From positions 33,795-97,794 of IMG/VR virus record IMGVR_UViG_3300036942_000180: 64,000 bases of DNA; one strand, written 5' to 3'. Positions 2,434 through 64,000 of the stretch are shown piece by piece. Both the position numbers and the translations under genes were made by a program. Numbering within the stretch: the first letter of the stretch is position 1; every line of letters starts with the position of its first letter. Under the pieces are notes generated by a model, which saw nothing but the letters and a program-made list of their open reading frames with translations, was not told where the DNA came from and searched no databases. The stretch is from a virus.

Positions 2434-2829
2434 CTATTTATGTTTTAATTTGAACTCCATGTCGAATTTCTTAGTATCATTCGAATTAAATCTCAGCTTA
2501 TTATGATATTTTGTTCTCCTATCGATTAATACATCATAATTAATGAAATGTTCCTCAATGTAGTCAACAATGTCTTTTATCATATAGTTGTAAATAGAAG
2601 GATATGAGCTATAGACCACTATATCTTCTGAAAATTGATCCTTGATCACCATATACTTGTATTCGATGTTGATCCTCATCAATATTAGATGATTTTTAGA
2701 TTTTAACTTGACTCTGAAGATGTAGTTATCTTCGTTATTGATGGAGAGGATGTCGTAGCTCATGACTGTCAGGCGTCTTAGAATATCTATTATTTTTTCT
2801 TCTATTGATTTTCTAGTCATTATTATCAC
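2434..2829 (-). CDS. Hypothetical protein with C-terminal KKxxMExKL motif
   Basis: Ends KKFDMEFKLKHK. Confidence 0.65.
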   Translation of the reverse strand: MIIMTRKSIEEKIIDILRRLTVMSYDILSINNEDNYIFRVKLKSKNHLILMRINIEYKYMVIKDQFSEDIVVYSSYPSIYNYMIKDIVDYIEEHFINYDVLIDRRTKYHNKLRFNSNDTKKFDMEFKLKHK

Positions 2830-2859
2830 CTCACTTATAGACGATATTGTGAAATTATA

Positions 2860-3135
2860 TTACTCATTATCATCTATAAAATCTTTAATGAATTCCAAAT
2901 CATCTTGATTGATCTCATCTTGTATCCAATCAATATCTAGAACATCGTCATAGAAGTTTTTAACTGATTCATATATAAAGAAGTTCCAAGTTGGATAGTT
3001 TTCTAGATATTCTTCATACACCAATACTTTAAATGTTTTATCTTTTTGATTAGGGACAGGAACTGCTCTAAAAGTGTTGCCCTCAATATCTTGGATGTCT
3101 AAAAGTGCCGTCTTGCTATCATAATATTCTTGCAT
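2860..3135 (-). CDS. Hypothetical protein
   Basis: 91-aa ORF with AAGGAGG RBS. Confidence 0.65.
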   Translation of the reverse strand: MQEYYDSKTALLDIQDIEGNTFRAVPVPNQKDKTFKVLVYEEYLENYPTWNFFIYESVKNFYDDVLDIDWIQDEINQDDLEFIKDFIDDNE

Positions 3136-3366
3136 TATTAATTCCTCCTTATATTTTATTAATTTTTAAATATTGATGAATGTAATAAGTCAACTGTGAT
3201 ACCAATTAAAAATCCAATTAAAAAATTTTGAATCCCAATTATAGATACTAAAATTCCTCCAACTACCAATCCAATAATAAATGACATTATTAATTCCTCC
3301 TTATTTTTATTGATTGTAAAGGAATTAGGAAATTAATCCTAATTCCTTTAATATTGATATTCATTT

Positions 3367-3383
3367 TAATAATATATACTTAA
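3367..3383 (-). promoter_or_regulatory. Early-type promoter motif
   Basis: TTAAGTATATATTATTA; one of 9 similar intergenic copies; resembles phiKZ/AR9 early promoter core. Confidence 0.6.
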
Positions 3384-6300
3384 TTAATCTTTCAATACAG
3401 AATTTTGTTCGTCCTCATCGTTGGTTAGTTCAAGACCCATACTCTTAAGATACGAATCAAATATTCTTCTAGTAATATCAGTAGTATCAGAAGTCTCTAT
3501 TTTTTCCATATTGAATATATTCTCATTTAATAATTCATCAACCATTTTTTGTCTACTCTCTTTATTACTAGAATAGAGAGACAAGAACCTTTTTATCTCT
3601 TTTGGATTCTTTGTTAAGAGGAGATTTGATATCTCCATTTCCGTTTATATTCATATAAGTTTATTAATCTCATATCTGATTTCAGCTATATATTTCTATA
3701 TAGACTAGACTATATCTTTACCTAGTTAGGCATTTCCCGTTTCTATTGCATTCACAATATACTATTAGTCTTTGAACATTCTTATTATTAAATATAATAA
3801 GATTTGCTGCTTATTATCCTTTAATTAGGATTTTTAAGCAATTAGAGAAATTTTAATTGAGCTATTTTATTAACCCAATCTTAGAGGATTCTTACGATAT
3901 AAATTCTCATTTTCTTTGAATGCTTTACTCTTGGCAGGGATGTTTTTTATATTATTGTAAGCGACTGATCTAGCAGAGAACTTACTACTAGCAGTGTGCT
4001 TGAGCAACACAAAATACAAGTCCCCCATCACCATTTTATTTTCTATTCCTTTGAACTTGAATGGTTCGATGTCATACTTATGCATCACTTCAGATAGTTG
4101 ATCGAACTCAATATTATCGTAAAAAGGTGGTTGATGAAAGTATATCCCATCTTCGTAGATATCCTCCCAGAACTCATCCTTATCTTCTGAATTTAGATTG
4201 ATATAATATTCTTCTAGAGCTTTAGCTTGAGTTTCATTGATATCATTCATGAAGTTGAAAAATAGTTCTTCTCGTTCTTTGTGATTATCTAAATTTTCTA
4301 GTTTCTTTGACATCTGAATAGACATCATGCCGAAAGTGACAGTATATAATTGGGTTGGATTTACGTTTATATTCATATAGATTCGCTAATATCTATACAG
4401 TTCTCTCATGAACTTCTATATGTTTCCATATAGACTAGACTATATCTTCACTCCTTTCGAAGTGTCTCCTGTTTCGATTTAAAGGGTTTTCACCTACTCC
4501 AATAACTTGAGCCCTACTCCTGTTGTGAATTAACACTAAAGGATAGTCGTTGAATATAGTTTTCTAAAATAATTTCTATATTTTTAAAATCAGTGTGTGG
4601 AATTCTTAATAAATTTATATTATTTTCTTTACAATATTTATTTTTCTTTTTATCATGAATTTGGACTCTATTTATCCTATCTTCAGTAAATATAGTATTT
4701 TCTTTTTGTCTCATATGATATTTCCCATCATATTCAATTAATAAATTTAATTTACTAACAAATATATCAAATCTTAATTTCTTATTTGAAAATTCGGATT
4801 TTAAATCATTAAAAGTTTTTTCAGTTTCAAAATTTAAATTTCCATCTTTTAAAAATTCTTTTATCTTTATTATTCCTTTTGAATCTCCTAATAAATTATG
4901 AATTGGATTTTCAGTACAGGTTGGACATCTTTGTCCATTAGTAATAAAATTATTAGGTCTTATATCCATTACTGTACCACATTCTAAATGTTTAATTTTA
5001 ATATTAGTTCTAGATATTCCTTTAAAATTTTCTGGAATATAAATTACTTCATATTCATTATCTATTTTCTTTATTATTTCTTTTAATTCTTTTTTAGTAT
5101 ATGCGTGTTTATTGCAATTATTACACCTATATCCATTATAAAGAAAATCAGATGGTCGCATATAAAAGTTTGAATTACAATCTTTATGCCAAAATCTTTT
5201 TAGTTCTTGTAATTCTCCATGTTTATATTCATCTTTAAATTTATAGTTAGTTCCTTCTAATTCTTTTACTTTTTTTACTATTGATTTTTTATCTAATTTT
5301 GTTCCAGCACAAAATCCACATTTATTTCTTCTTGGATCTTTATAGTATTTATAAACAGTTTCTAAATTTCTATTACACTTTAAATGTTTAATTATTATTT
5401 GTGATCTTGGACCATCATGTTTTATTATTTTTACTAATTTAAATTCATTATCTTTTTCAATTTCATATTTAATTCTTCTTTTAGTCAATTGAGACGATTT
5501 TATTCCATGTTTTCTTTTTAATTTTGATACTTCCCATTTAGAACATGAAAACATATCTGCTACTTTTTGAATTGTATTTTCCCATAATAATAGTTCAAAT
5601 TTATCTTTATCAATTTCATTTAACTTTTTCATATTAATAATCCTTTCTTAAAAACTATACTGCTGATTGCCCATTGTAATATCTATAAGTATTTTTAAGC
5701 ATATCACGCTTACCAGCTAGGTTACGTTGTAGCTCTTATAGCTTTAGGGGTTTCCAGCAATTAAGGAGATGCAAATAAATGATTATTCATTTATAGGGCT
5801 AATTTAATAACCGATTGATAACCCCAAGAGGGTTCAATAATACTTCAGCTTTCTCTCCACTTTCAGTTGTAGGCATTTCTTCATCGGGAATGATTTTACT
5901 GATTATACCTTTATTTCCTGACCTTCCACTGATCTTACTCCCTACACGGCATTCCTTCTCTTGCAGTATTCTGAACTTCACAATAATGTTACTGAATTCC
6001 TTACCATTATTCCTCCACACAATTTCGTCATCTGTGATTTCCTTAGCTCTTTTATACTGGTAAGCTAGGTCATCTGAATAGTTTTCTTTGGAGTTTTCTT
6101 CAACTATTTCAGATAATACTTCATATACTTTTTCATAGTAAGCTTCATCTTTCTTTATATACTTAACTAACTGTTCATTGAATTTGTGTTTCTCCAATTT
6201 CTCAGTATCAGCATTACTATACACGCTGATATCAATGACTTCCCCATCACTGTAGAACACAGTGTCGTTACTGTAATTGATGTTGTTAAGTTCTTTGGTT

Positions 6301-7480
6301 TTAAGGTCAGTCAGTATCGAATCGTAATCAATTCTCCTTCGGGCACATAGAAATTTACTGAATTTCTCTCCAATATCAGGGAAAGATTTATATTCATCAT
6401 TATCCCCGAATAGATTGATCAATATATCGTTAGTATTAATATTGATACTAATTTCATCTATCCTATAAGAAGTTAATTTTTCCTTACCACTTTCTGATAT
6501 AACTATTGCCATTTACCTTTTACATAACTCGTTAAATTACATATGCTATATATTTCTATATAGATGAGACTATATCATTATTCAATTAAGAATAATCCCT
6601 TTTTCCACTTACTCTAAGTGTACTATTAGTCGTTGAATGTTCTTATTACTTTCATAATAAGATTCACTGCTTATCATCCTTTTAATCAGGATTTTTAAGC
6701 AATTAAAGGATTTTAACGAGGACTACAATAATTTATAATCCTCAAAAGTTAAGTTCTTGTAGGGTATAAATAGGGCTTTGAGGTTCGTTCCATACATAAA
6801 ATTAAGATCATCGTCATAAGTGGTACTCCTATAGACTAGATCATCTTTCTCGATACTGTCTCCTTTGCCTTTATCTTTAATCTTGTTGTCTATCTTATAA
6901 CCATACTTTTCAGTAGTCCTCTCTGCGTTCTTCACTTCTTCGATGTGGTAGTACTCTGAATTCTTATCTTTTAATACGTAGAGTATATTCTTTTCATTCT
7001 TCTCTATTCTTTCTATTATCTCCCAATCTCTGTCCGCTTTCTTGTACGCAGAAGAATACTTACCCACTTGATTCTCGAAGTTGGTGAATACTCTCGGAAA
7101 CTCGGGTTCCTTTAGAACTATTGCTTGCCTAATGTGATTGGTGAACATGTTGATCCTGTTTGACATTTATATTATTATAAGATTATTAATCCTATACTCA
7201 TAGTTACTTATGAGATTAGACTATATCTTTGTGCATACACACACTCTCTTTTTCCACTATATTTATAGTGTACTATTAGTCGTTGAACATTCTTATTATT
7301 AAATATAATAAGATTTGCTGCTTATTATCCTTCTAATTAGGATTTTTAAGCAATTAAAAGAGTTTTAAGCGAACCAATTTAATCCGCTTTATCAACATTA
7401 GGTGTTAATAGTTCCTCTGATAAGAATTCGTGTGAACCATCAAACTTTTCAATATCAATATCTCTAATTCCTAGACTCAT
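3384..7480 (-). CDS. rpoB: Phage RNA polymerase beta subunit, C-terminal half (probably non-virion RNAP, phiKZ gp71-73-like); 5 exons, 657 aa
   Basis: Exons 7480-7382, 7163-6738, 6509-5810, 4363-3873, 3641-3384 join in frame (1974 nt). Splicing restores beta motifs KAD|SNRINMFTNHIRQA, TFED|AIVISE, GSKISGRSGNKG, NPLGVINRL|NPTQ, RLG|EME. Confidence 0.92.
3642..3872 (-). mobile_element. Group I intron, ORF-less (231 nt)
   Basis: P1 UUGGGU/GCUCAA with U.G wobble; AAUUGCUUAAAA, AAUAAGCAG, UUCAAAGACUA and AAGAUAUAGUC core elements; terminal G. Confidence 0.9.
4364..5809 (-). mobile_element. Group I intron with homing endonuclease ORF (1446 nt)
   Basis: AAUUGCUGGAAA, AAUCAGCAG, UUCAACGACUA, AAGAUAUAGUC; ends AAACG; removal restores frame. 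Confidence 0.9.
4514..5632 (-). CDS. Intron-encoded endonuclease (Zn-ribbon repeats plus EDxHD/Vsr-like nuclease)
   Basis: Repeated HxxC...FLxxGxRCxxC units; C-terminal FDIF...IEYDGKYH...HD; ORF reads into the P7 core. Confidence 0.8.
   Translation of the reverse strand: MKKLNEIDKDKFELLLWENTIQKVADMFSCSKWEVSKLKRKHGIKSSQLTKRRIKYEIEKDNEFKLVKIIKHDGPRSQIIIKHLKCNRNLETVYKYYKDPRRNKCGFCAGTKLDKKSIVKKVKELEGTNYKFKDEYKHGELQELKRFWHKDCNSNFYMRPSDFLYNGYRCNNCNKHAYTKKELKEIIKKIDNEYEVIYIPENFKGISRTNIKIKHLECGTVMDIRPNNFITNGQRCPTCTENPIHNLLGDSKGIIKIKEFLKDGNLNFETEKTFNDLKSEFSNKKLRFDIFVSKLNLLIEYDGKYHMRQKENTIFTEDRINRVQIHDKKKNKYCKENNINLLRIPHTDFKNIEIILENYIQRLSFSVNSQQE
6510..6737 (-). mobile_element. Group I intron, ORF-less (228 nt)
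   Basis: P1 GAGGAU/GUCCUC; conserved core; terminal G; splits FED|AIV. Confidence 0.9.
7164..7381 (-). mobile_element. Group I intron, ORF-less (218 nt)
   Basis: P1 GCGGAU/GUUCGC; conserved core; terminal G. Confidence 0.9.
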
Positions 7481-8277: not shown

Positions 8278-8296
8278 CTTGTCTTATTCCCCCTCA

Positions 8297-8650: not shown

Positions 8651-8654
8651 AAAA

Positions 8655-9068: not shown

Positions 9069-9071
9069 ATA

Positions 9072-9419: not shown

Positions 9420-9450
9420 ATACTATTCCTCCTTTTATTTTTATTCAAAA

Positions 9451-9467
9451 TAATAATATATATTTGA
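9451..9467 (-). promoter_or_regulatory. Early-type promoter motif
   Basis: TCAAATATATATTATTA upstream of 9419. Confidence 0.55.
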
Positions 9468-26816: not shown

Positions 26817-27476
26817 TTATTTATTTTCCATCTTATTTTCCATGAGTAATTTTTTATACTTAACTCCCACTCTTTCGTTTTCTGATTTATCAAATGTTTC
26901 TAAGAAACCAAATATATCCAAGTATTCTCCATTTATATATCTTCTTATATGAGTTCCATCAGAATAATTAAGATTTACTTCTTCTTCAGTTTCTATCATA
27001 TCGCAATAAGGATTGTCACCATAAAGTTTATCTAAATCATGAAAATAAACTTCCCTATCTATATAATCATTAGTATTTCTTATTAACCTATTGATTGACA
27101 AACCATGGGAGTTATATATAGCCTTTTCTAGTGAATCCCTAATGCTATCAAAAAGATCCTTCTTTTCCTCGCTCCATAGTGACTCTAAAGTTGTATAAAA
27201 ACTTACACTAAATTCTTTTCTATATATAGTATTGATAAATTTATCATGTTCTAAAAATTTTTGAAGAGTGTATGATAAATAATCTTGGTTATCAATTAAC
27301 TTATTTCTTTCTTTTTCATTCAATTTGTCTAAATAAACCATCCATTGCTCCATAAAATATTTAAAACCTTGATTCTCTTGATGCATATCAAATTCAAATA
27401 TAGAATCAATATATATTTTATAATACTTTAGAAAATTATCATCCTGATTTTCTAAATTGATTTCCATTTCTTTCAT
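26817..27476 (-). CDS. Hypothetical protein with C-terminal motif; paralog of 27661-28335
   Basis: Alignable by eye throughout; ends KKLLMENKMENK. Confidence 0.7.
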   Translation of the reverse strand: MKEMEINLENQDDNFLKYYKIYIDSIFEFDMHQENQGFKYFMEQWMVYLDKLNEKERNKLIDNQDYLSYTLQKFLEHDKFINTIYRKEFSVSFYTTLESLWSEEKKDLFDSIRDSLEKAIYNSHGLSINRLIRNTNDYIDREVYFHDLDKLYGDNPYCDMIETEEEVNLNYSDGTHIRRYINGEYLDIFGFLETFDKSENERVGVKYKKLLMENKMENK

Positions 27477-27660: not shown

Positions 27661-28335
27661 TTAATTCTCCTTTATTTTGTTTTCCATATTTTCTTTCTTG
27701 TAAGCAATACCCACTCTTACCTCGTCAGATTCTTCAAACGCTTTAACTATTCCAAAGACATCGTAGTAGCTCCCATCCACCAATATCTTTTTGTAACTTT
27801 CATCCCTCCAACCCAAATTGACTATCTCCTCTTCATAATCACCTTCGTAGAAAGGATTTTTAACTATATATTGATAGTCGTAATAAGTTTCTTTTCCATT
27901 AAAATATACTTGAGTGTTCCTAGCTATTCTTTTAGTAGCTGATAAGTGCATATTATAAAGCGACTTCTCCATATTATTTCTAATGACTTTTAATAGTTCC
28001 ATCCTATTATTTATTAATGATTCCATTTCTTCAGGGTAACTTTCATTATACCAACCTAAGCCATATCTTATCATTGATATAAACTCCCTATTCTCCATGA
28101 TCTTCGACATAGCCCAACTTAAGTAATCTGGATTATTTAATAATTTTTTTACTTGCTCATCAGTAATTCTATTTAAATATGCAATCATATGAGTAAGAAA
28201 ATAGTCTGTTGCTTTATTATGTCTATTTCTATTGTCAATACACATTGCATCTATATATGCTTTAAATGATTTTAAGAAAGCATCATTAGAATTTAATTTA
28301 AACTCCATTTCTTTTCTTTTTCTTTTACTAGGCAT
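27661..28335 (-). CDS. Hypothetical protein with C-terminal motif; paralog of 26817-27476
   Basis: Ends KKENMENKIKEN. Confidence 0.7.
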   Translation of the reverse strand: MPSKRKRKEMEFKLNSNDAFLKSFKAYIDAMCIDNRNRHNKATDYFLTHMIAYLNRITDEQVKKLLNNPDYLSWAMSKIMENREFISMIRYGLGWYNESYPEEMESLINNRMELLKVIRNNMEKSLYNMHLSATKRIARNTQVYFNGKETYYDYQYIVKNPFYEGDYEEEIVNLGWRDESYKKILVDGSYYDVFGIVKAFEESDEVRVGIAYKKENMENKIKEN

Positions 28336-30196: not shown

Positions 30197-30404
30197 CTTC
30201 CTCTTTCTTTAATTTCTCTTCCATAAGATGTTTCTTATAAAGTTTATATAAATTCTCTGATGCTTCTTTATCTAAATTGATTTCTTTGGTAGGAGAGCTT
30301 TCACCATAATTTATATCTGCACATTTGATGATTTTCATCCTACCTTCTGAATCAACTTCTAAATAAGTATCTGGGAGCGTAGAAATTTTGGTAATTTCTA
30401 TCAT
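30186..30404 (-). CDS. 72-aa protein with C-terminal motif between MoxR and VWA genes
   Basis: Overlaps both neighbours; ends KKHLMEEKLKKEEGDE. Confidence 0.65.
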   Translation of the reverse strand: MIEITKISTLPDTYLEVDSEGRMKIIKCADINYGESSPTKEINLDKEASENLYKLYKKHLMEEKLKKEEGDE

Positions 30405-31841: not shown

Positions 31842-31902
31842 TATTAAACCACTCCTTTTAGTTTTTAATATAATTTAGTATAATAACTTCATTTAATCAT
31901 CA

Positions 31903-31919
31903 AAATAATATATATTTAA
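31903..31919 (-). promoter_or_regulatory. Early-type promoter motif upstream of MoxR-VWA operon
   Basis: TTAAATATATATTATTT. Confidence 0.55.
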
Positions 31920-32024: not shown

Positions 32025-32780
32025 TTAGTTCATTTTTTGTTCCATAATATATTTTCTAATATATTTATTATCAGATTTTTTAAGAAACTTTTTAAATTTT
32101 TCAATATCGAAATTTCCTAAATCTGTTTGATAAATTTCATCATCATATAAAAATCTAACTATTCTTAATATAGAAAGGTAATGTAGTTGTTCTATACCAA
32201 AAGTCAGTATTTCATATATTGAATACTCATTCTTTTTGAATTCTCTATTATAAATGGAATTTGAAAAATGATAAAAGAATTCTTTGTCACGTTTCATTAC
32301 TGTTTTAAGACATTCTTTAAATTCAACACTTTTAGTGTAATCAATCCCACTTTCTATTATGAACATTATATAAGCATTAAAAGTTCTAAAGAAATTATGT
32401 CCAGAAGTATTATCCCATTTATAATTTTCTCTATATTTAATATTAGTATTAAATAATGTTCTGGATACTCTTTCTTCAAATTCATTTAAATCTATTATAT
32501 CTTCTAATTCGCTTGTCTTAGATTTTAAAAAACCGTTTTTGTATCTCACTATTTTAGATACTTTTTTATGATTTAATTCTTCATAGTTATTATCATATGG
32601 AAAAGGAGTATACCCTTCAGTATCTACTTTTTCTAATAACTCATTCATATAATTATTAACTGGTTTCATTATCTCTTTATATTGATATTTAAATAACTCT
32701 GAATAGTTATTGTAATTTTCTAACCTAGCAATAAAGAAATCTATAACAGTAAATTTATTAATATTATCTTCTCCTTCCAT
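32025..32780 (-). CDS. Hypothetical protein with C-terminal motif
   Basis: Ends RKYIMEQKMN; start uncertain. Confidence 0.65.
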   Translation of the reverse strand: MEGEDNINKFTVIDFFIARLENYNNYSELFKYQYKEIMKPVNNYMNELLEKVDTEGYTPFPYDNNYEELNHKKVSKIVRYKNGFLKSKTSELEDIIDLNEFEERVSRTLFNTNIKYRENYKWDNTSGHNFFRTFNAYIMFIIESGIDYTKSVEFKECLKTVMKRDKEFFYHFSNSIYNREFKKNEYSIYEILTFGIEQLHYLSILRIVRFLYDDEIYQTDLGNFDIEKFKKFLKKSDNKYIRKYIMEQKMN

Positions 32781-32852: not shown

Positions 32853-33611
32853 TTATTTAAGAGATTCTTCCATTTGATACTTTTTAATTAAACTATTTTC
32901 ACTATTCTTTATTTCTTTTAAAACTTCTTCCCATAAGTAATAATCATAGTCACTATATTCACTTTTAAATATGCTATTAATATTACGTATAAATCTTTTC
33001 TTAGTCATAAAATGAATATCTTCTAAAACATCAATTATTGTATTTACTAAAAAGTCCCTTACTTCTTCATCTGTATGTTTCATTTGATATGTTGTATCAT
33101 AATTATCTAATAAATTAATAGTAAATTCAGTATCATCTTTTATAAACTGTTCTATTATAGAATAAGATAAATTTTGATATTCGGTAGTTAATAATTTATC
33201 TTTTTTATAAGCATCTTTACTTAAGTATATTACTGATGCAAGAAATAGTTTATTATTTCTTGATTTAGTTAATTTTTGAGTAGATAAAGCTTTTTCTATT
33301 AAGGTACATACAAAATCGAATTTAAAATCTATTTCTTCTTTATCTTTAATAATTTCTAAAGAGTTTGATATTAGGCTAGAAAATCTATTCATTGTACTAT
33401 ATAAATTTCTTCCATCTGAAGCGTAATACTCTTTAAAATCCTCTCTAGTAACTATATTGATATCATATTCTTCATATAAATAATCCATTAAATCAAATAA
33501 TATACTTCTTATTAATTTAACTTGAGTTTTATATTCTGATTGTGAATAAGCATAATTAATATTATTAATAAATTCTTTTAAAAAATCAATATTATTTTCT
33601 TTATTATTCAT
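32853..33611 (-). CDS. Hypothetical protein with C-terminal motif
   Basis: Ends KKYQMEESLK. Confidence 0.65.
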   Translation of the reverse strand: MNNKENNIDFLKEFINNINYAYSQSEYKTQVKLIRSILFDLMDYLYEEYDINIVTREDFKEYYASDGRNLYSTMNRFSSLISNSLEIIKDKEEIDFKFDFVCTLIEKALSTQKLTKSRNNKLFLASVIYLSKDAYKKDKLLTTEYQNLSYSIIEQFIKDDTEFTINLLDNYDTTYQMKHTDEEVRDFLVNTIIDVLEDIHFMTKKRFIRNINSIFKSEYSDYDYYLWEEVLKEIKNSENSLIKKYQMEESLK

Positions 33612-34591: not shown

Positions 34592-35821
34592 TTATTTGTC
34601 TAACTTTTGTTCTAGCTTAACCTTTTTTACTACATTCTTATATCTCTCTAGTCCATCAGGAATATCATTAATAAAGTCATAGTTAAATAGGTTATCGCTG
34701 TAATCGGTATAGACATCCTTCTCAAACTCAACTATATAGTTTTTAACCAAAGCCTTAAGAGTAAGACCATGTGTTAAATCACTATTATTAAATGTCTCTA
34801 ATATCATTCCTGCAACTATTTTATTTAAATCATCAATCATGCCATCTGAATAAGCTGTAAAGAAATATTTTTTAATTCTATAAAACTCGATATTATCTAC
34901 TGTATTTTCTATAAATTCCCTTATCATACCTAAATAGTCTTCATAATTATCTTTTGTTAGATAATTTTCTACAAATGCCATATATGCTTTGATTCTCTCT
35001 TTAAATTCTGTTACATTACCTGCCATTATAGAGTTTCCTTTTAGAAGAAATTGTTTTACTTCAAATGGTTGATCGTCAAAAGTATCTTTATCTATAATAT
35101 CTAAATTTTTAAATATTTCTTCATCATAATACTGTTTATCAAAATTACGCCTTCCAACATTTACGATTTTGAAATACTGTTCTAGTTCTTCTTTAGTAAC
35201 TGACTGTTTTACAATTGTTACATGTTCATATCTATAAAGATGTCTACTCATATAAGCTTTGGCTTCAGTACTTATTTTATCACTATTTTCCATAAATATC
35301 TTTTTCAACCAATAATCTCTACCTCTTCCTTTTTCATCACTTCCTACTATTCCATCTAATGCTAATTCTCCTCTATATGGATCTTCTTCTGTATTGAATA
35401 AGTCTATAGTTTTGCTTATTATTTCTTCTTCTCTATCTCTAATACCAACTTTCTCTAAGTATCTTGAAAATCTATATTGTGATAAATTATCAAATTCTAC
35501 ATAGTTATAAAGATCTTCAGTAGTAACTTCTTTCCCATCTCTATTAAGCATTAATAATGCTTCACTATTTAGATTTTTAATATTATCTCTTATCATTTCA
35601 GGATGTTTAGAAAGATATTTATAGTTATCATATAATTCTCTTCTCAGCATCTCTTCTATCTCATCTTTAGATATTTTTCTTTTAGTATTATAAGTATTTT
35701 TATCTATTTCATAATACACCATATCATTTATATCATTATAATATAAATCATCATTTATTTCTTCTACTGAATTAGCTATAAAAGCCCTGTCAGAGTTGGT
35801 GTTCAATACTAATATTTTCAT
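34592..35821 (-). CDS. Hypothetical protein with C-terminal motif
   Basis: Ends KKVKLEQKLDK. Confidence 0.7.
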   Translation of the reverse strand: MKILVLNTNSDRAFIANSVEEINDDLYYNDINDMVYYEIDKNTYNTKRKISKDEIEEMLRRELYDNYKYLSKHPEMIRDNIKNLNSEALLMLNRDGKEVTTEDLYNYVEFDNLSQYRFSRYLEKVGIRDREEEIISKTIDLFNTEEDPYRGELALDGIVGSDEKGRGRDYWLKKIFMENSDKISTEAKAYMSRHLYRYEHVTIVKQSVTKEELEQYFKIVNVGRRNFDKQYYDEEIFKNLDIIDKDTFDDQPFEVKQFLLKGNSIMAGNVTEFKERIKAYMAFVENYLTKDNYEDYLGMIREFIENTVDNIEFYRIKKYFFTAYSDGMIDDLNKIVAGMILETFNNSDLTHGLTLKALVKNYIVEFEKDVYTDYSDNLFNYDFINDIPDGLERYKNVVKKVKLEQKLDK

Positions 35822-47614: not shown

Positions 47615-48034
47615 TTAATCACCTTCTTTCTTTAATTTATACTCCATCTTTAATTTTTGGTAATATGGTTTTAATTGATGAAAATTTATATGAGATTTTC
47701 CATTTCCATCATCAACTAAAATAGAAAAATTATTAGATAGTGTAGACTCTAAATTAAATATTATCAATGAAATTAGTTTCTTTTTACTTTCTAAGTCTAA
47801 TTTTAATCCTAATTCTTTAAATTCAATTACTACTTTATTATTTTCCATAAAAATATTTAATACTTTATTCTCTTTATATTCATCGTCAAGTCCAATATTA
47901 TAAGAAAATTCTATATTTTCAGTTATATCATTAATATTAAAAATAATATTATTACCAAATACTTCATCTCTAAAAGTTTTTATGATATAATCATCTGGAT
48001 GAGGAATGGAACCCCTAAAATATATTTTCATCAC
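47615..48034 (-). CDS. Hypothetical protein with C-terminal motif
   Basis: Ends QKLKMEYKLKKEGD. Confidence 0.65.
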   Translation of the reverse strand: MMKIYFRGSIPHPDDYIIKTFRDEVFGNNIIFNINDITENIEFSYNIGLDDEYKENKVLNIFMENNKVVIEFKELGLKLDLESKKKLISLIIFNLESTLSNNFSILVDDGNGKSHINFHQLKPYYQKLKMEYKLKKEGD

Positions 48035-48441
48035 TAATCATCCTTTTTCTTTAATTTATACTCCATAAAATATTTTTTTATATCATTTGCCTTAATCTTA
48101 TCTTCTTCATTTTTATATTTAATTATAATAGAATATTTTTTAATATCAATATCAGTGTTAAAAAGGATTATCGATGTAATATTTTTTCTTATTTTTGAAC
48201 TGTAGTCAAATCTTTCTTTAAACTCTATAGTTATTTCTCCATCTTTTAATTTTAATTCTAAAATTTCAATCTCACTATTATCTAGTTCATAAGTGATAGT
48301 AATTGATTTATCCTTATTTAGAACAAATGAATTTTCACTTTTTATTAGATCTTCAATCATGCTTTTCATCATAGAATCTCTAAACATATCTTTTAAAAAA
48401 TCATGCTTATCATCTGATATTGACATAGCCGGATTTTTCAT
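48034..48441 (-). CDS. Hypothetical protein with C-terminal motif
   Basis: Ends KKYFMEYKLKKKDD. Confidence 0.65.
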   Translation of the reverse strand: MKNPAMSISDDKHDFLKDMFRDSMMKSMIEDLIKSENSFVLNKDKSITITYELDNSEIEILELKLKDGEITIEFKERFDYSSKIRKNITSIILFNTDIDIKKYSIIIKYKNEEDKIKANDIKKYFMEYKLKKKDD

Positions 48442-48444
48442 ATA

Positions 48445-48780: not shown

Positions 48781-48782
48781 TA

Positions 48783-49238
48783 TTATTCCTCCTTATTTAA
48801 TTTATTTTCCATTACGCATTTTTTAAGTTCTTTCTTACTCACTTTTTTAATGACAGACTTTTTTACATAAGGATTATGAGCTTTAATTTCAAAACTGTTA
48901 ATATTATCTATTAAATCTTTAAAGACCATCGAGTAATTTTTCAGAACCTTAAGATCGATATCATTTAAATCGTCAGTATTGAATTTATAAGAATATCTTT
49001 CAAAATGAGAAAATATTCTTTCTACTATGATGACATCAATGGTTTCACCATTAATCACAACATTCATTTCATTATTTAGCGTTGCTTTCTTCCAGACCTT
49101 CGAAACCTCTATATTATTGAAGGTTGATTCAATATTATATTGGCTTTCATCTATTTCTTCCACAAATACTTCATTTTCATTAAATTTTGTTACAAGTTGC
49201 AACAAATTTCTTTGAAGTATATCTTTAATGTTATCCAT
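48783..49238 (-). CDS. Hypothetical protein with C-terminal motif
   Basis: Ends KKCVMENKLNKEE. Confidence 0.65.
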   Translation of the reverse strand: MDNIKDILQRNLLQLVTKFNENEVFVEEIDESQYNIESTFNNIEVSKVWKKATLNNEMNVVINGETIDVIIVERIFSHFERYSYKFNTDDLNDIDLKVLKNYSMVFKDLIDNINSFEIKAHNPYVKKSVIKKVSKKELKKCVMENKLNKEE

Positions 49239-49864
49239 TAATCATCATCCTTATTTAATTTATTTTCCATTTTCAATTTTTTGACCATTACATCAACATT
49301 CTCTTCTTCTATTTCATTTACTATCTTTAAATTCTTATATTCTCTATAAATATATTTATCTGATATTATATCTTTATTAATATCATATTCTTTTAATTTT
49401 TCATCAACTATTGATTTTACTTTATAAAAATAATTTTTATATCCCTTAATTCTCTGTTTACTACTTTTAGAATTTAACATGATGTTTATGATATACTTAA
49501 TTTCTATAATATTTTCACTATTATATGGATGAATATGAATTTCAAATCCGTTTTCTCCATATTTATCAGTAGTATTTACTATCAATATTTCTTTTTCATC
49601 ATCTTCGTGTCTATATTTATTAACATCTATCAATTCTATATTTTCGTCATCCTTAGAAAAATTTCCTCTTTCTCGATAATGGTAATAATCTGAGATGAAA
49701 TAACTATAGATGTCTAAAGCTAATAATCTACACTTATTATAATTATTCAATTTCATTATTAAACCCCCTTTATTAATTTTACCAACTAGTTCCATTTTTA
49801 TTGTATGAATAAGGAGTTGAAAGATCATTGAAGAAATCTTTGATATCAGAAAAACTATCTTCAT
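49238..49864 (-). CDS. Hypothetical protein with C-terminal motif (true start probably MKLNNY)
   Basis: Ends KKLKMENKLNKDDD. Confidence 0.65.
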   Translation of the reverse strand: MKIVFLISKISSMIFQLLIHTIKMELVGKINKGGLIMKLNNYNKCRLLALDIYSYFISDYYHYRERGNFSKDDENIELIDVNKYRHEDDEKEILIVNTTDKYGENGFEIHIHPYNSENIIEIKYIINIMLNSKSSKQRIKGYKNYFYKVKSIVDEKLKEYDINKDIISDKYIYREYKNLKIVNEIEEENVDVMVKKLKMENKLNKDDD

Positions 49865-50297
49865 CTTTATCTTGGAGATTTACGTCATTCAATCTATTTT
49901 CTAATAATTGTTTTTTAAACTCTTCACTGGTCATTTTTATTATATCTAACTCATCTGCTTCTTTATTAATTATATAAATATTAACTAGTTTAACGTATCC
50001 AATTATATTTTTCATGGATTGCTCTATTGCAAACAACATCCTATTTACTATATCTTCATTGGTATAAATATCCCTAGCTGAATGGTAAGCTTCCATTCTA
50101 ATATTCAATTCATCATCTTCGGTAAACATCAATTTTAATCTAAACGAATCACTTCCGTGTCCTGTAAAGAACTTATTGAAATGTAAGTTCAATCCATTAT
50201 TTATCTTAGATAATCTAAAATCTAAATCATCTTCCATGAATAGATTCACCAAGTTATTATTGATCTTATTCTTTATTTCTTCTAATTCTTTACTCAT
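49779..50297 (-). CDS. Hypothetical protein with near-terminal motif
   Basis: KKQLLENRL about 30 aa before the stop. Confidence 0.65.
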   Translation of the reverse strand: MSKELEEIKNKINNNLVNLFMEDDLDFRLSKINNGLNLHFNKFFTGHGSDSFRLKLMFTEDDELNIRMEAYHSARDIYTNEDIVNRMLFAIEQSMKNIIGYVKLVNIYIINKEADELDIIKMTSEEFKKQLLENRLNDVNLQDKDEDSFSDIKDFFNDLSTPYSYNKNGTSW

Positions 50298-50773
50298 TCT
50301 GATCTCTCCTTCAATTTATTTTCCATCTTGTATTTCTTAATCTTATTATTAATTAAATTAATATCTACCTTCTTTCTATCTATTTCGTTTACATGAGTTG
50401 GCGTGATATTAAAATTTTTAGATAAATAAGTAGAATGTATTATAAAACTATCTATATTATTTTCTAAATCTATTAATATAGGAAGAACTAATTTAATAGA
50501 TTCTTTATCAATATGATTTAACTCCCTTATAAATTTATATTCACCTCTCATATGACCTCTTTCAATATTATCATCAAGTTCTATATCAAGTTCAATAGTT
50601 ATTTTATCACTATCTTTTTCTATTCCTATAACTCTTATTTTTAATCTATTTACTTCAAATATAAAAATATTTCTATTTTTAGAATTATCATATTTAAAGA
50701 ATTCAAAATCAAGCCGACTATTATCGAAGCAAAATTTACCTATATTCCTGTAAAATATTTCTATAGTATTCAT
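50294..50773 (-). CDS. Hypothetical protein with C-terminal motif
   Basis: Ends KKYKMENKLKERSE. Confidence 0.65.
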   Translation of the reverse strand: MNTIEIFYRNIGKFCFDNSRLDFEFFKYDNSKNRNIFIFEVNRLKIRVIGIEKDSDKITIELDIELDDNIERGHMRGEYKFIRELNHIDKESIKLVLPILIDLENNIDSFIIHSTYLSKNFNITPTHVNEIDRKKVDINLINNKIKKYKMENKLKERSE

Positions 50774-51206
50774 CTACTTTACCACCTTCCAGATAATGAT
50801 AATTAAACTTACCTAGCTTTCTTTCCATTATACTTTTTCTTATCATATTAGTAGTTATTATATAATAATATCTGTCATCAAACCATTCACTTAATTCTTT
50901 ATATTTCCAATTAAATTCCATAGCAACTTCAAAATCATCATTATGTTTTCCTTCTTTGTATAAGTTAAATAAGACTTCATAATATAATGAATCAAATGTT
51001 TCTTCTAAATCTAAATAAGAATATTCGTTTGTATTAACTATTTTAAATATCACTAATTTAATATTATCTTTATAATCAACTTTTAATTCAATAAAATCAT
51101 TTGAATAATAATTTCCATTAATAAATGTGTTATCTCCACTTTTTTTATTATAATTTATATTAGAAGAAACTATATCTATAACTTCATCTCTATTCATTGT
51201 GATCAT
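50736..51206 (-). CDS. Hypothetical protein with near-terminal motif
   Basis: RKSIMERKL near the end. Confidence 0.65.
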   Translation of the reverse strand: MITMNRDEVIDIVSSNINYNKKSGDNTFINGNYYSNDFIELKVDYKDNIKLVIFKIVNTNEYSYLDLEETFDSLYYEVLFNLYKEGKHNDDFEVAMEFNWKYKELSEWFDDRYYYIITTNMIRKSIMERKLGKFNYHYLEGGKVDEYYRNILQEYR

Positions 51207-51690: not shown

Positions 51691-51763
51691 TCATTTTTCC
51701 CCCTTTCTGTTAATCCCCTCTAATTAATTTATTCGAAATAAAATTTATTTTTCCTACTCAAAA

Positions 51764-51780
51764 TAATAATATATACTTAA
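51764..51780 (-). promoter_or_regulatory. Early-type promoter motif
   Basis: TTAAGTATATATTATTA, identical to 3367 and 46407 copies. Confidence 0.6.
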
Positions 51781-59429: not shown

Positions 59430-59516
59430 AATTAATCCCTCCTAATTATTTTAATAAATCAGACTTAAGCATAGTTAAATGCTTAAGTCCATTTGTTCAT
59501 TATAATAATATATCTT

Positions 59517-61017: not shown

Positions 61018-61599
61018 TTAATTTATTTTAAATCCTTCCATTCTAATTTCCATTATTGCTTTTTGAAATTCGATATTATAATTCCATTCATTGCAATAGT
61101 CGCTGATAAATTCTTTTTCTTTACTTTTTAATATTAAAGAAGAAATAACTCTTGATTTATTATCGCAAGTATCAATCATTGCTTTTATTATTCTTTTATA
61201 TTTTACTTCTTTTATATTATGATAATTATTTAAAGGATCTATTAAAGGGAAAACTTCATCATTAAAATTGAAATAATGAGTGAAAAAATTATTGAACTCA
61301 TCATATCCAATTTTCCAATAATCTAATAATTGATATACAGCCATAAATAAGTCATAATATTCCGAGTTACTATCACATAGTTCTATTATTTTTAATATAG
61401 AACTTGAAACTTCAGATTCACTTAGTATTTTTATTTTTCGATTAAGATAATTTCTAAATAAACTTATTATTTCTCTTACATCTTCTATATCTTTATATTC
61501 TTCATCTTCTAAAGCAAGAATAAATTCGTTTCTCATATGGAACATCCTGTCTCTATTTCTTAGTTTCTCTAATCTATTAATAAGTTTAGGATCATTCAT
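61018..61599 (-). CDS. Hypothetical protein with C-terminal motif
   Basis: Ends QKAIMEIRMEGFKIN. Confidence 0.65.
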   Translation of the reverse strand: MNDPKLINRLEKLRNRDRMFHMRNEFILALEDEEYKDIEDVREIISLFRNYLNRKIKILSESEVSSSILKIIELCDSNSEYYDLFMAVYQLLDYWKIGYDEFNNFFTHYFNFNDEVFPLIDPLNNYHNIKEVKYKRIIKAMIDTCDNKSRVISSLILKSKEKEFISDYCNEWNYNIEFQKAIMEIRMEGFKIN

Positions 61600-61611
61600 A
61601 TAATAACCTCC

Positions 61612-61833
61612 TTATTCTTCTTCCATGTAACCACCAGAAATATTATCATCCAATATCTTATTCAATTCGTCTTTAGAAACTGTATCATTATAAATATGCC
61701 CTAATTCTGTTTGCAATATTTCTTTAGCTTGCATGAAATTACTTAAGTTAACATCTCTCCCATTTCTTTTAAGTGCCTTTTCTATTACATCAGCATCAAT
61801 GCTAAACTTGATATCTACTTTTTCCATTTCCAT
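61612..61833 (-). CDS. Hypothetical protein
   Basis: 73-aa ORF in array. Confidence 0.6.
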   Translation of the reverse strand: MEMEKVDIKFSIDADVIEKALKRNGRDVNLSNFMQAKEILQTELGHIYNDTVSKDELNKILDDNISGGYMEEE

Positions 61834-61835
61834 TA

Positions 61836-62315
61836 TTAACCTCTCCTTTTTAATTTGATTTCTAATAATAATTTTTTTCTAATAGTTTCTATTTGTTTAT
61901 AATTTTTTTTAATATAATTTATTACTTCTTTATCATTTAATAATCTTAAAATACGATCAATCATAAAGATATCTATATATTCTTTATTATAATATATTAA
62001 TTCCATCAAATCAGGGATTAAATACATTTTTTGAATTTCGTCTGTCTTTGCTCCATAAGATATACTATTAAATAACATACTTATATATCCAAATATTATA
62101 GGTTCATAATATCTATTGTCAGTAGGAATATATTCATTTAATAGGTAATTAAATTCCTTATTGAACTGATTCAACGAAAAATCAGTATTGTCTATATTTT
62201 CCCTTAATGAATTCCTATACATTGTGTAAAATTCAGTTGCTCTCTGATCTGCACTCTTATTAACTTTTAAGAGTCTTAAAGATTCCTTATCATTTAGATA
62301 TTCCATATTAATCAT
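61836..62315 (-). CDS. Hypothetical protein with C-terminal motif
   Basis: Ends KKLLLEIKLKRRG. Confidence 0.65.
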   Translation of the reverse strand: MINMEYLNDKESLRLLKVNKSADQRATEFYTMYRNSLRENIDNTDFSLNQFNKEFNYLLNEYIPTDNRYYEPIIFGYISMLFNSISYGAKTDEIQKMYLIPDLMELIYYNKEYIDIFMIDRILRLLNDKEVINYIKKNYKQIETIRKKLLLEIKLKRRG

Positions 62316-63048
62316 CTCCTAACTTCATTTCCATTTCAATCTTGATCCTATCTTTTTTAGGAAAGAATTGAAGTAAAATATGGTAATCATTATTTATATA
62401 GTTTAAAGCCAAGCAAATTTCTTTTCTTTCTTTATAGTTACTGAGATAAGAAGAAAGAATCTCTAAAATTTCTTTGTTATAATCATAATCAGAACAGTAG
62501 TAATAGAAATGAGAAATTACATTTACTATAAAATCAATTTTATTATATTCTTCATAATATAATAAAAAATCTAAGATAGATTTAATCAAAGAATCTAATT
62601 TCTCTTTTTCTATGAATTTATAATAATACTTGTATCCATTAAAAATGCTATAGCTATTAACTACAAAATTCTTCTTAACTAGATGTTTATACATATCAGT
62701 TATCTTTATTAGTTCCTCAATAGCTATTCCTTCTCGATTTTTAACATATCTATCTAAATGATAAATAATTTCATCAAAAGGAATCATATTCTCCATTAAT
62801 TCTATATCAAAACTTGTATAGGTGTAGACCATCTCTCTTAATTTATTATAAAATGGATAATACGTGTTAATATAATCCCACTCAGTCATTTCAATAGTTA
62901 ACTCACTATAGTTAAGAAACCTATCAATAGTTTCCCTCCATAATACACTGTTAGTATCTCCATCAAAGACAAAATCGTTTACGACTTTTCTATCAGAAGA
63001 ATGACTCCAAAATCTTTTTTCATTAGTAGTATCCATTATTTTCCTCAT
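62308..63048 (-). CDS. Hypothetical protein with C-terminal motif; paralog of 63023-63766
   Basis: Ends IKIEMEMKLGDD. Confidence 0.7.
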   Translation of the reverse strand: MRKIMDTTNEKRFWSHSSDRKVVNDFVFDGDTNSVLWRETIDRFLNYSELTIEMTEWDYINTYYPFYNKLREMVYTYTSFDIELMENMIPFDEIIYHLDRYVKNREGIAIEELIKITDMYKHLVKKNFVVNSYSIFNGYKYYYKFIEKEKLDSLIKSILDFLLYYEEYNKIDFIVNVISHFYYYCSDYDYNKEILEILSSYLSNYKERKEICLALNYINNDYHILLQFFPKKDRIKIEMEMKLGDD

Positions 63049-63766
63049 CTCCCAATTTGAGTTCCATTCTTATCTTCTTTTGTTCTTTATCGGTAAAGTA
63101 TTTAGTTAATTCTTCATCACCCACCCAGTATTTCGAAAGTAAAAATTCACAAGCTCTTTTCTTAGATTTGAAAGTAGTTAAATATTTGACTAATATTTTA
63201 ATTATTTTTTCCCTATGAGGAGTATTTCCCATCTCAAACAAAGGGAATCCATACTGTAAGATCAAATTTTCTGGGAGTTTACTGAATTCCACAAAAGTAT
63301 CAAACGATTGCCTTATAAACCCCTCCACATATGGGAAATCATTTTCATATAAATAACTATACCACATTATTATATGATCAGCATTAACTATTCTATTTTT
63401 ACTCAGTAGATCATTATAGATATCATTAAATAATATTTTTTCATGAGTCAAAACTTTTCCTTCAAATGTACTTAAATAAGTAAAGAATATATCTATAATA
63501 TGATTAAAATCTAATGGTGTGAGTGTATTAGAAGATTCCATTATTTCTTCGTGTTTTTTAATTAATTTATTCAGTTGAGTTACAAATAAATAGTCTACAG
63601 TAGTAACTGATGCCATTGTAGGTTTATATGTCTCTTGCATATTTTTCTTTTCTTCATATTGAGTTTTCATATATTCTATATCTAAAAATTCGTTAATTGT
63701 TAGTTTCCAGTTAACTTCACCATCTATATACACAATCTCATTAAATCCATCGAAGTTTTCTATCAT
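63023..63766 (-). CDS. Hypothetical protein with C-terminal motif
   Basis: Ends KKIRMELKLGDEENNGYY. Confidence 0.7.
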   Translation of the reverse strand: MIENFDGFNEIVYIDGEVNWKLTINEFLDIEYMKTQYEEKKNMQETYKPTMASVTTVDYLFVTQLNKLIKKHEEIMESSNTLTPLDFNHIIDIFFTYLSTFEGKVLTHEKILFNDIYNDLLSKNRIVNADHIIMWYSYLYENDFPYVEGFIRQSFDTFVEFSKLPENLILQYGFPLFEMGNTPHREKIIKILVKYLTTFKSKKRACEFLLSKYWVGDEELTKYFTDKEQKKIRMELKLGDEENNGYY

Positions 63767-63768
63767 TA

Positions 63769-64000
63769 TTAATACCCCTTTTCTAATCTGAACTCCATTT
63801 TTAAACGCTTTCTATCTTTTTCAGAAAAATATTTTGCTAACCTTTCATAATGAATATCTGAGTTTTCTAAGTATTCACAAACTCTTTTTTTATACTTATA
63901 TGAATCAAAATATTTAGATATTATTTTTATTATTTTTTCACTATGATTTAATTTTTGACTTCTAAACAATAATAAATTACCTAAAATTAATTTGTCATAT
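63769..64000 (-). CDS. Partial third paralog with C-terminal motif
   Basis: Frame open to window end; ends KRLKMEFRLEKGY. Confidence 0.65.
   Translation of the reverse strand, partial: YDKLILGNLLLFRSQKLNHSEKIIKIISKYFDSYKYKKRVCEYLENSDIHYERLAKYFSEKDRKRLKMEFRLEKGY

Follow-up and report, generated by a model that had tools for sequence, protein, structure and literature searches.

A short terminal helix recurs on about a quarter of the predicted proteins of an oil-field jumbo phage contig and may act as a docking tag

Known terminal address peptides, such as degrons, the signals of T4 internal proteins and those of microcompartment enzymes, cover a handful of cargoes. In the microcompartment (BMC) encapsulation peptides of PduP, PduD, EutC and CcmN, a short N- or C-terminal helix suffices to address unrelated proteins to one structure. 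Terminal degrons read by AAA+ machines include the ssrA tag, the ClpX N- and C-motifs, lambda O and MuA, with phage early regulators being classic substrates. Through a common C-terminal peptide, as in the clamp-binding ends of T4 proteins and the acidic tails of T7 gp2.5 and gp4, several replication proteins dock on one hub. The internal proteins of T4 and the Dar proteins of P1 place N-terminal capsid targeting or packaging signals on unlike proteins, with a Glu at a fixed place. The T4 capsid targeting and P1 Dar packaging signals have been reviewed (PMC3012670, PMC9024508). For the element described here, a search of the literature on shared terminal tags of jumbo-phage or early proteins found no published equivalent.

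The element belongs to an uncultured oil-field jumbo phage. The window, meaning the whole 64,000-nt stretch of DNA analysed, comprises bases 33795-97794 of a 97.8-kb viral contig that represents only ~38% of the phage genome, and all feature coordinates are window positions. The gene set was a crude call of 149 non-overlapping ORFs on the contig, with no curated annotation. The tag has the consensus K-K-x-x-M-E-x-K-L and forms a short helix at one end of proteins that are otherwise unrelated. The window holds 20 C-terminal copies, all on the minus strand, and one N-terminal copy; the first-pass annotation had listed the 20 C-terminal instances, and each was found at its ORF with the peptide given. 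The tagged ORFs are as follows.

2446..2472, minus strand: C-terminal tag KKFDMEFKL of ORF 2434-2829 (131 aa)
26829..26855, minus strand: C-terminal tag KKLLMENKM of ORF 26817-27476 (219 aa), kept in population variants
27673..27699, minus strand: C-terminal tag KKENMENKI of ORF 27661-28335 (224 aa), a paralogue of ORF 26817
28294..28320, minus strand: second, N-terminal tag KRKEMEFKL of ORF 27661-28335, residues 6-14, with a proper SD and ATG upstream
30210..30236, minus strand: C-terminal tag KKHLMEEKL of the 72-aa ORF 30186-30404, between the MoxR exon and the zincin-VWA gene
32031..32057, minus strand: tag RKYIMEQKM of ORF 32025-32780, one residue before the stop, no close downstream gene
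32859..32885, minus strand: tag KKYQMEESL of ORF 32853-33611, with S at position 8
34601..34627, minus strand: tag KKVKLEQKL of ORF 34592-35821 (409 aa)
47633..47659, minus strand: tag QKLKMEYKL of ORF 47615-48034, final gene in the tagged array predicted to be early
48052..48078, minus strand: tag KKYFMEYKL of ORF 48034-48441, terminal helix in a low-confidence model
48798..48824, minus strand: tag KKCVMENKL of ORF 48783-49238, changed in population variants only by K to R at position 8
49256..49282, minus strand: tag KKLKMENKL of ORF 49238-49864
49890..49916, minus strand: tag KKQLLENRL of ORF 49779-50297, followed by 36 more residues, into the next gene
50312..50338, minus strand: tag KKYKMENKL of ORF 50294-50773
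50814..50840, minus strand: tag RKSIMERKL of ORF 50736-51206, with an extension of 25 residues
51238..51264, minus strand: tag KKIIMELKV of ORF 51190-51690, first gene of the array
61039..61065, minus strand: tag QKAIMEIRM of ORF 61018-61599
61851..61877, minus strand: tag KKLLLEIKL of ORF 61836-62315
62320..62346, minus strand: tag IKIEMEMKL of ORF 62308-63048 (246 aa)
63053..63079, minus strand: tag KKIRMELKL of ORF 63023-63766 (247 aa), last helix (226-242) of a confident all-alpha model
63784..63810, minus strand: tag KRLKMEFRL of ORF 63769-63969+, truncated where the window stops

The rest of the contig outside the window adds 15 C-terminal and four N-terminal copies, so that 39 of the 149 ORFs on the 98-kb contig (~26%) carry 40 copies, 35 of them C-terminal, where shuffled tails lead to an expectation of 0.4. 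Enrichment at C-termini over shuffled sequence, which the initial proposal required, is pronounced: the core pattern occurs within the last 45 residues of 33 proteins among the 149 ORFs, compared with 0.43 on average and at most 4 across 2000 composition-matched tail shuffles, and the strict pattern gives 29 observed against a shuffle mean of 0.08. Scores from a position matrix, which was trained on the same instances that it scores, are bimodal, with 38 ORFs at 18-31 bits and none between 18 bits and 9.3 bits, the 99.9th percentile of shuffles. The Glu is invariant in all 40 tags, and the carriers range from 66 to 409 aa. In most ORFs the tag ends 1-9 residues before the stop, three (49779, 50736 and 51190) continue for 15-36 residues past it, into the next gene, and a small P-loop NTPase has one strong internal copy. 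These more distant tags and the internal copy indicate that a free end is not strictly required. Four proteins have the tag at the N-terminus and one has it at both ends, and the N-terminal copies have their own SD and ATG.

The tag resembles the BMC encapsulation peptides in being a short helix at either terminus of unrelated bodies, with one face that would pack or bind while the rest varies. It differs in its invariant Glu and fixed K-K...M-E...K-L face, the BMC peptides having a loose hydrophobic pattern, and in marking ~26% of ORFs, all of unknown function; no match to the BMC shell domain (PF00936) was found in the 98-kb contig (~38% of the genome). With AAA+ degrons it shares the use of a short peptide at either end, the possibility of one machine for many unlike substrates and a position at the extreme terminus, subject to the three tags 15-36 residues in and the internal copy. 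The tag sequence differs from known degrons, however, and what follows L9 varies in length and composition, being set by the SD of the next gene, so that a free carboxylate is not part of the signal, unlike in a degron of the ssrA/ClpX type. The 98-kb contig has no ClpP or Clp-type AAA_2 genes. The T4 capsid targeting and P1 Dar signals are likewise short common terminal peptides with a fixed Glu, and one tagged family matches DarA_C, but the tag is mostly C-terminal, lies in a predicted early-gene context, shows conservation to either side of the Glu and occurs on far more proteins. The replication hub tails are also common C-terminal peptides across several proteins, but sit on DNA enzymes; in this phage the tag is missing from the helicase, ligase, polymerase pieces and RNRs, and its carriers are ORFans.

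That the carriers are mutually unrelated, as first suggested, was borne out by sequence searches. The 35 C-tagged proteins fall into 29 BLAST groups, which become 28 after iterative HMM searches, and hhalign of two carrier families gives an alignment covering the tag region only. None of the 35 has a Pfam or PHROG match. The same annotation of the contig agrees with the early remark that recognisable enzymes and baseplate genes lack the tag: no tag is present on the RNRs, helicase, DnaB-like protein, ligase, PolB pieces, RNAP piece, portal or baseplate genes. Of the tagged ORFs, 2 of 39 have a homologue in AR9 or a related locus, as against 36 of 110 among those without the tag. The carriers are accessory proteins that evolve fast and are specific to this lineage. 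The predicted helix at the protein end was recovered in two models, as the last helix of the confidently modelled all-alpha protein of ORF 63023-63766 and as the terminal helix of an array protein (ORF 48034-48441) predicted to be alpha+beta in a low-confidence model. In the confident model the pLDDT of the tag helix is high, which implies that the tag may be an integral packed helix and not a free handle. Foldseek found nothing significantly similar to this model in PDB or BFVD, and an ESM Atlas look-up with the 409-aa carrier gave nothing above chance level. A membrane-targeting amphipathic helix is disfavoured by the invariant Glu, the few hydrophobic residues and the occurrence of a TM-like segment of any sort in only 3 of the 35 carriers.

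Three N-tagged proteins are paralogues within a repeat family of more than 3000 homologues that matches the DarA_C repeat model, and none of the 120 nearest homologues elsewhere has the tag. Together with the unrelatedness of the other carriers, this indicates that the tag is a lineage-specific overlay, in line with the address label that the first-pass annotation had proposed. The tag is portable: either terminus is used, and only in this phage is the tag laid on the widespread repeat family. The related jumbo phages, where a search had been suggested, lack it. The cultured relatives AR9, BpSp, LPJP1 and S6 have only 0-1 chance matches, AR9 has no other recurrent C-terminal motif either, and among ~150 related loci from a portal alignment (80 viral and 72 metagenome) none has the tag or another recurrent C-terminal motif. 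The sole close relative is a 3.9-kb fragment (L209). A scan of IMG/VR for the DNA form of the tag gave scattered single matches, apparently chance, and no second multi-tag contig; the neighbouring helicase has no close relative in IMG/VR, and an amylase-like gene has none in prokaryote genomes. Two carriers do have orthologues that retain the tag. At 51% identity, that of the 409-aa protein (ORF 34592) has KKVKLELKL, and at 72% identity, that of the 247-aa protein (ORF 63023) has the tag unchanged. No motif-breaking change occurred in 13 variant comparisons, and variation in the few close variants (5 of 119 tag positions, 226 of 2885 body positions) is not dramatically lower in the tag.

Most carriers lie behind matches to early promoters of the AR9 type, which were scored against the AR9 consensus, AAATATATATTAT-(6N)-G (PMC5312081). 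The tagged arrays are co-oriented with replication genes and not with structural modules. Two such sites and the genes adjoining the 72-aa tagged ORF are listed here.

51763..51774, minus strand: site matching the AR9 early-promoter consensus, immediately upstream of the eight-tag array from 51690 to 47615
31902..31913, minus strand: early-promoter-like site upstream of the unit of MoxR, 72-aa tagged ORF and zincin-VWA gene
30404-31291: MoxR exon
28721-30196: zincin-VWA gene, with DUF2201_N and DUF2201

We consider it fairly probable that the tag serves as a portable docking helix at protein ends, recognised by one partner, a single reader whose existence and function we infer. The recognition helix would comprise ~9-15 residues, roughly [YF]-K-N-K-h-K-K-h-h-M-E-x-K-L (h, hydrophobic), and would mark about a quarter of the phage proteins, usually at the extreme C-terminus and in a minority at the N-terminus; most of these proteins come from predicted early transcription units. 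On a helical wheel with 100 degrees per residue, positions 0, 3, 4 and 7, which are variable but hydrophobic, would lie on one face and pack on the carrier's own body, and the conserved K1, K2, M5, E6, K8 and L9 would lie on the opposite face, where M and L would make a small hydrophobic patch surrounded by charges, a surface that a common partner could read. A conserved exposed face of this kind suggests a docking handle, through which one reader would treat many unlike proteins as a class. The reader that we favour, tentatively, is a machine engaging protein ends, for example an AAA+ unfoldase/protease or its adaptor, phage- or host-derived, by which early proteins would be cleared or remodelled as a group; a localisation hub seems less likely, and capsid loading is a doubtful candidate. 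It is also possible, if far from assured, that the tag addresses its carriers to a hitherto undescribed system for sorting or turnover, specific to the lineage, in which one reader handles about a quarter of the phage proteome as a class. The gene for such a reader would lie in the host or in the 60% of the phage genome that is unsequenced; the early accessory set as a whole might for example be cleared or relocated at the switch to late development, and new accessory genes would join the system by gaining the nine-residue helix at either end.

If this is true, a single tag on about a quarter of viral genes, nearly all of them orphans, would mean that the phage manages its fast-evolving accessory proteins through one interface. 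It would open a way into the 'dark matter' genes of jumbo phages, in that one peptide could serve to isolate the reader by pull-down and to label, relocate or destabilise all members of the class at once, and orphan genes could be assigned to a functional class simply by the tag in their sequence. As the tag has only nine residues and works at either end, it could serve as a portable engineering tag once the reader is known.

Of the competing explanations, a signal at gene junctions that acts in the nucleic acid or in translation (a promoter, an RNase site, or a standby or coupling element) and is translated only incidentally would account for the location of the tags within ~50 nt of a junction and for the next gene's SD usually lying a few codons after the tag; where a close downstream gene is present, the residues after the tag correspond to its Shine-Dalgarno in 25 of 26 cases. 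Judging from codons and reading frame, however, selection acts on the peptide and not on the DNA. The AAA/AAG, GAA/GAG and Leu codons within the tag follow genome usage, which upholds the peptide-level selection originally proposed from synonymous variation, and substitutions are conservative (K/R, M/L, L/M/I/V), multi-base changes included. All 21 matches to a degenerate DNA pattern lie in frame on the coding strand, with zero on the opposite strand and zero in a reversed control. One frame thus serves for all copies, third positions vary as they do genome-wide, and the class of amino acid is kept despite two- or three-base differences. Nine tags without a close downstream gene still end 1-7 residues before the stop, and the N-terminal copies stand within ORFs, after a normal SD and ATG. 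By its placement, the tag is tied to the protein end and not to the next gene, and on these coding patterns the junction signal is close to refuted. A recombination or cassette boundary sequence was dropped, there being no DNA-level conservation at synonymous sites. Repeated duplication of one ancestral gene, with the terminal helix as the slowest-evolving structural element of a hidden paralogue superfamily and no common reader, would fit the tandem arrays of similar-sized carriers (eight at 47615-51690, five at 61018-63969), the six small paralogue groups that are still detectable and the modelling of the tag helix as part of the fold. We regard it as unlikely, since BLAST, iterative HMM and hhalign comparisons show no similarity outside the tag, lengths spread over 66-409 aa, one family is all-alpha while the array protein is predicted, at low confidence, to be alpha+beta, and the opposite end is tagged in four proteins and both ends in one. 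Moreover, some members of a widespread repeat family are tagged here while their 120 nearest homologues elsewhere are not, and a purely structural helix on different bodies would have no need of identical exposed K, K, M, E, K and L.

The tag could also be a substrate label for the phage's own MoxR AAA+/zincin-VWA pair, its Glu captured by the VWA MIDAS and the protein then remodelled or cut. MIDAS sites bind an acidic ligand residue, as in integrin I domains and CbbQO, and the Glu is shared by all 40 tags. The pair is encoded here with its HExxH and DxSxS...T...D motifs intact, and the MIDAS residues D360, S362, S364, T418 and D443 are conserved in 83 homologues. The 72-aa tagged ORF is wedged between the two genes, unlike in AR9, which has no such ORF there, and tagged genes flank the unit. 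A chaperone-plus-peptidase role has been proposed for the pair in jumbo phages (Iyer et al. 2021, PMC7824862). The same pair, however, is conserved behind an early promoter in AR9, BpSp, LPJP1 and S6, so that its presence does not track the tag; this weakens the case for the pair, which had been among the receptor candidates named at the outset, and makes it an improbable reader. No more probable is a capsid-loading signal and/or prohead-protease site, by which tagged proteins would be packed and injected like T4 internal or P1 Dar proteins. The T4 prohead cleavage rule is L/I-x-E, and the tags resemble it in having I, L or V two positions before the Glu in 22 of 40; the N-terminal copies end ~12 residues in, similar to the T4 signal length, the N-tagged family matches DarA_C, and phages of the AR9 group have a T4-type prohead protease. 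Yet 35 of the 40 tags are C-terminal where a T4-type L/I-x-E leader is N-terminal, ~10 residues long and removed in the prohead, a cut after the Glu would remove only 4-12 residues, and conservation extends to both sides of it. The tagged arrays lie behind early-promoter matches, co-oriented with replication genes, and roughly 100 packaged species per genome would be extreme. Binding of the tags to each other, with tagged proteins co-assembling as a mixed oligomer or condensate without a separate reader, appears very improbable: the conserved face, with K1, K2, K8 and E6 around a hydrophobic pair, could in principle be self-complementary, but with two helical turns the tag is short for forming a stable coiled coil. 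The E-x-K-h portion of the tag resembles an inverted SUMO consensus, a likeness that was set aside as probably coincidental.

All 20 C-terminal peptides listed in the first-pass annotation as copies of the nine-residue tag K-K-x-x-M-E-x-K-L (x, free position) were found at the ORFs named, and in 17 of them the tag lies 1-9 residues from the stop codon. In the array ORFs 49779, 50736, and 51190, the frame goes on for 15-36 residues past the tag and into the next gene, and in ORF 27661-28335 the tag occurs again at residues 6-14. The 34 kb of contig (G000, locus L004) that precede the window yielded 15 further C-terminal copies and four N-terminal copies, the latter in three paralogues beginning MSSKKMKKLLMEVKL or similar and in one other protein. 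With a crudely called set of 149 non-overlapping ORFs, the core pattern was detected within the last 45 residues of 33, compared to an average of 0.43, and never more than 4, across 2000 trials with composition-matched shuffled tails, so that the enrichment withstands the shuffling control proposed for it. A 14-column matrix, trained on the same tag instances that it scores, placed 38 ORFs at 18-31 bits and the remainder below 9.3 bits, with an empty gap between; the motif reaches upstream of K-K as roughly [YF]-K-N-K-h (h, hydrophobic).

Two further occurrences lie outside this pattern. A 145-aa ORF (window 35825-36262), directly upstream of a 409-aa carrier, ends in KMLKVDLKLNNERR, which scores below threshold and looks like a decayed tag with V-D replacing M-E. 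A 196-aa P-loop NTPase (AAA_15/AAA_21-like; contig 10517-11107, L004) has a strong tag-like SIKKLLMEERM mid-protein, between its Walker A part and its C-terminal part. This is the sole clearly internal copy and the sole recognizable enzyme with the motif, and two cassettes may have fused to give this protein.

The carriers had been described as unrelated, and the sequence comparisons say that they do not form one family. With the tag removed, BLAST sorts the 35 C-tagged proteins into 29 groups, which iterative profile searches within this small set reduce to 28, and in a profile-profile comparison of two carrier families only the tag region aligns. Pfam and PHROG gave no match for any of the 35, and a homologue in AR9 or in approximately 150 related loci was found for 2 of 39 tagged ORFs compared to 36 of 110 untagged ORFs. 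The tagged proteins are not membrane proteins, and their length and pI are ordinary. The model of a 247-aa family is confident (pLDDT 83, pTM 0.80) and all-alpha, and places the tag within the last helix, at residues 226-242, with no significant match to this model in the PDB or BFVD; a 135-aa array protein is predicted, in a low-confidence model (pLDDT 51), as alpha+beta with the tag in a terminal helix.

The tag is retained in orthologues found in other metagenome samples: at 72% and 51% identity, these differ from the carriers by at most a single x-position change within the tag. In 13 close-variant comparisons there were zero motif-breaking changes, the only changes being K to R at position 8 and those at x positions, and one truncated variant was without the tag; changed positions numbered 5/119 in the tag compared to 226/2885 in the body, although these are small numbers. 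The search of related jumbo phages that had been suggested showed the complete AR9, BpSp, LPJP1, and S6 to be without the tag (0-1 matches per 220-270 kb), and it was not found in 84 related viral loci. Of four 22-kb slices cut from this contig, three showed a recurrent C-terminal motif; AR9 and 105 related loci have no other motif of that kind.

Selection on the peptide, which had been proposed from synonymous codon variation, is supported by Lys, Glu, and Leu codons occurring in the tag at genome-wide proportions, with AAA at 72 of 102 Lys codons (72% genome-wide) and GAA at 30 of 40 Glu codons (79% genome-wide). Substitutions stay within residue class: Lys and Arg interchange (AAG to CGT among them), Leu replaces Met, and Met, Ile, or Val replaces Leu. 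The competing explanation is a DNA or RNA signal at gene junctions. For 26 tags with a gene start no more than 30 nt downstream, the tail does hold the Shine-Dalgarno sequence of that gene in 25, and gene packing accounts for the residues beyond the tag. Nine tags without a near downstream gene are still 1-7 residues from the stop, and the N-terminal copies are preceded by a normal Shine-Dalgarno sequence and ATG. A degenerate DNA form of the tag gave 21 matches in the contig, 21/21 in frame on the coding strand, with zero on the opposite strand and zero in a reversed control. Given the genome-like codon use, the exclusively in-frame matches, the tags lacking a next gene, and the ordinary starts ahead of N-terminal copies, a nucleic acid signal is very unlikely.

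The clearest case for portability of the tag is the set of three tandem paralogues with N-terminal tags upstream of the window (contig 7126-8928, L004). Their repeat unit is like LSEEFIxEFKDKLDW, their bodies match the DarA_C model, and homologues carry PF08004. This repeat family is very widespread, with more than 3000 homologues, some in eukaryote assemblies, and the 120 nearest were all without the tag; in this phage, the family's ordinary K/E-rich helix at the N-terminus has been brought to tag consensus. A distant relative (33% portal identity; L150/L131/L133, 21879-22361) has a repeat-family homologue that begins MKKLSKKQLFDLRF. This start has the tag shape, K-K-x-x-F-D-x-R-F, which no other ORF in its 22-kb locus does, and may hint at the origin of the tag.

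The phage is represented by a linear 97.8-kb IMG/VR contig, of which the window is bases 33795-97794, with approximately 28% GC and almost all genes on the minus strand. The contig is estimated at 38% of the genome, which implies a jumbo phage. Its portal shares 34% identity with the portals of Bacillus phages AR9 and PBS1; the relationship to those of Listeria LPJP1, Staphylococcus S6, and Yersinia phiR1-37 is more distant. The AR9 early-promoter consensus is AAATATATATTAT-(6N)-G (PMC5312081); this consensus, for which the AR9 annotation was also used, recurs on the minus strand of the contig. The core ATATATTATWWT has nine matches on both strands of the window compared to 2.3 expected, including:

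9450-9461, minus strand, early-promoter core match
11258-11269, minus strand, early-promoter core match
31902-31913, minus strand, match before the MoxR unit (MoxR, a 72-aa tagged ORF, and zincin-VWA)
37283-37294, minus strand, early-promoter core match
46406-46417, minus strand, early-promoter core match
51763-51774, minus strand, match directly upstream of the eight-tag array
59502-59513, minus strand, early-promoter core match

On this excess, the virion-RNAP promoter seems to be conserved despite portal identity of only about 34%. The eight-tag array (51690-47615) continues into the helicase gene, and other consensus copies stand ahead of further tagged clusters. From homology to AR9 promoters, we infer that the tagged arrays are probably expressed early.

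On a helical wheel at 100 degrees per residue, from which helix faces were inferred, the variable, mainly hydrophobic positions 0, 3, 4, and 7 would lie on one face and the conserved K1, K2, M5, E6, K8, and L9 (composition counted from the tags) on the opposite face. The variable face would pack on each carrier's own body, and a shared partner would meet the same Met-Leu patch, with Lys and Glu around it, on every carrier. The tag's strong preference for a terminus, at either end, is typical of peptides recognized by machines that act on protein ends (AAA+ unfoldases and their adaptors) and of encapsulation or loading peptides. We slightly favor the tag as a docking handle for one reader, and within that reading lean toward class-wide turnover or remodeling of early proteins, then localization, then capsid loading. 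The MoxR/zincin-VWA pair, put forward earlier among candidate receptors, has some appeal in the invariant Glu of the tag, the intact MIDAS and HExxH motifs of the zincin-VWA protein, and the tagged mini-ORF lying between the two genes. However, AR9-group phages, which are without the tag, conserve the pair as an early unit, and in AR9 the two genes have no ORF between them, which counts against this candidate; an assembly role has been proposed for the pair (Iyer et al., PMC7824862).

By mode of action, the nearest analogues of such a docking handle are microcompartment encapsulation peptides, terminal degrons, the capsid-loading signals of T4 and P1, and the hub-binding tails of T4 and T7 replication proteins. 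Encapsulation peptides would be expected with a shell gene, and none is present in the contig (approximately 38% of the genome); degrons would be expected to conserve their last residues, unlike this tag; the T4 and P1 signals differ from a mostly C-terminal tag in a probably early-gene context; and the T4/T7 tails are on DNA enzymes, whereas the carriers here are not. As each analogue thus departs from the tag in one tested defining feature, we file it under none of them and class it, by analogy, as a putative "short terminal address peptide" in general kind. A literature search found no paper on such a proteome-wide tag, in agreement with the initial statement that no described equivalent was known. 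What is remarkable is its reach, at approximately 26% of ORFs (crude calls, contig approximately 38% of the genome), and its occurrence on orphan, probably early genes.

Oil-field and shale-gas metagenome runs contain this phage DNA. Recognizable genes on the contig include class II and class III ribonucleotide reductases, an SF1 helicase, a DnaB-like ATPase, NAD ligase, split PolB pieces, an RNAP beta piece, a sigma-70-like protein, a group II intron reverse transcriptase, a MoxR ATPase seemingly split into 62-aa and 295-aa exons, and a zincin-VWA (DUF2201) protein. The sigma-70-family protein (regions 2, 3, and 4; contig 3365-4228, L004) is encoded beside the portal; the phage has multisubunit RNAP pieces of its own as well. 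Several genes, among them those for the RNAP beta piece and MoxR, are interrupted by gaps with a recurring core …GATATAGTCT…TATAG…. The intervening elements in the window include:

42385-45969, class II ribonucleotide reductase with an intein containing a LAGLIDADG domain (Intein_splicing, PT-HINT, and LAGLIDADG_3 matches at residues 664-1005)
11966-13858, reverse transcriptase (RVT_1, E 9e-38) within a gap interrupting a gene
31300-31660, gap with the recurring core
3640-3870, 6513-6722, 7167-7479, and 19171 onward, examples of the many further intergenic gaps with this core

The reverse transcriptase is consistent with a group II intron, and the gaps with the recurring core agree with small ORF-less group I introns.
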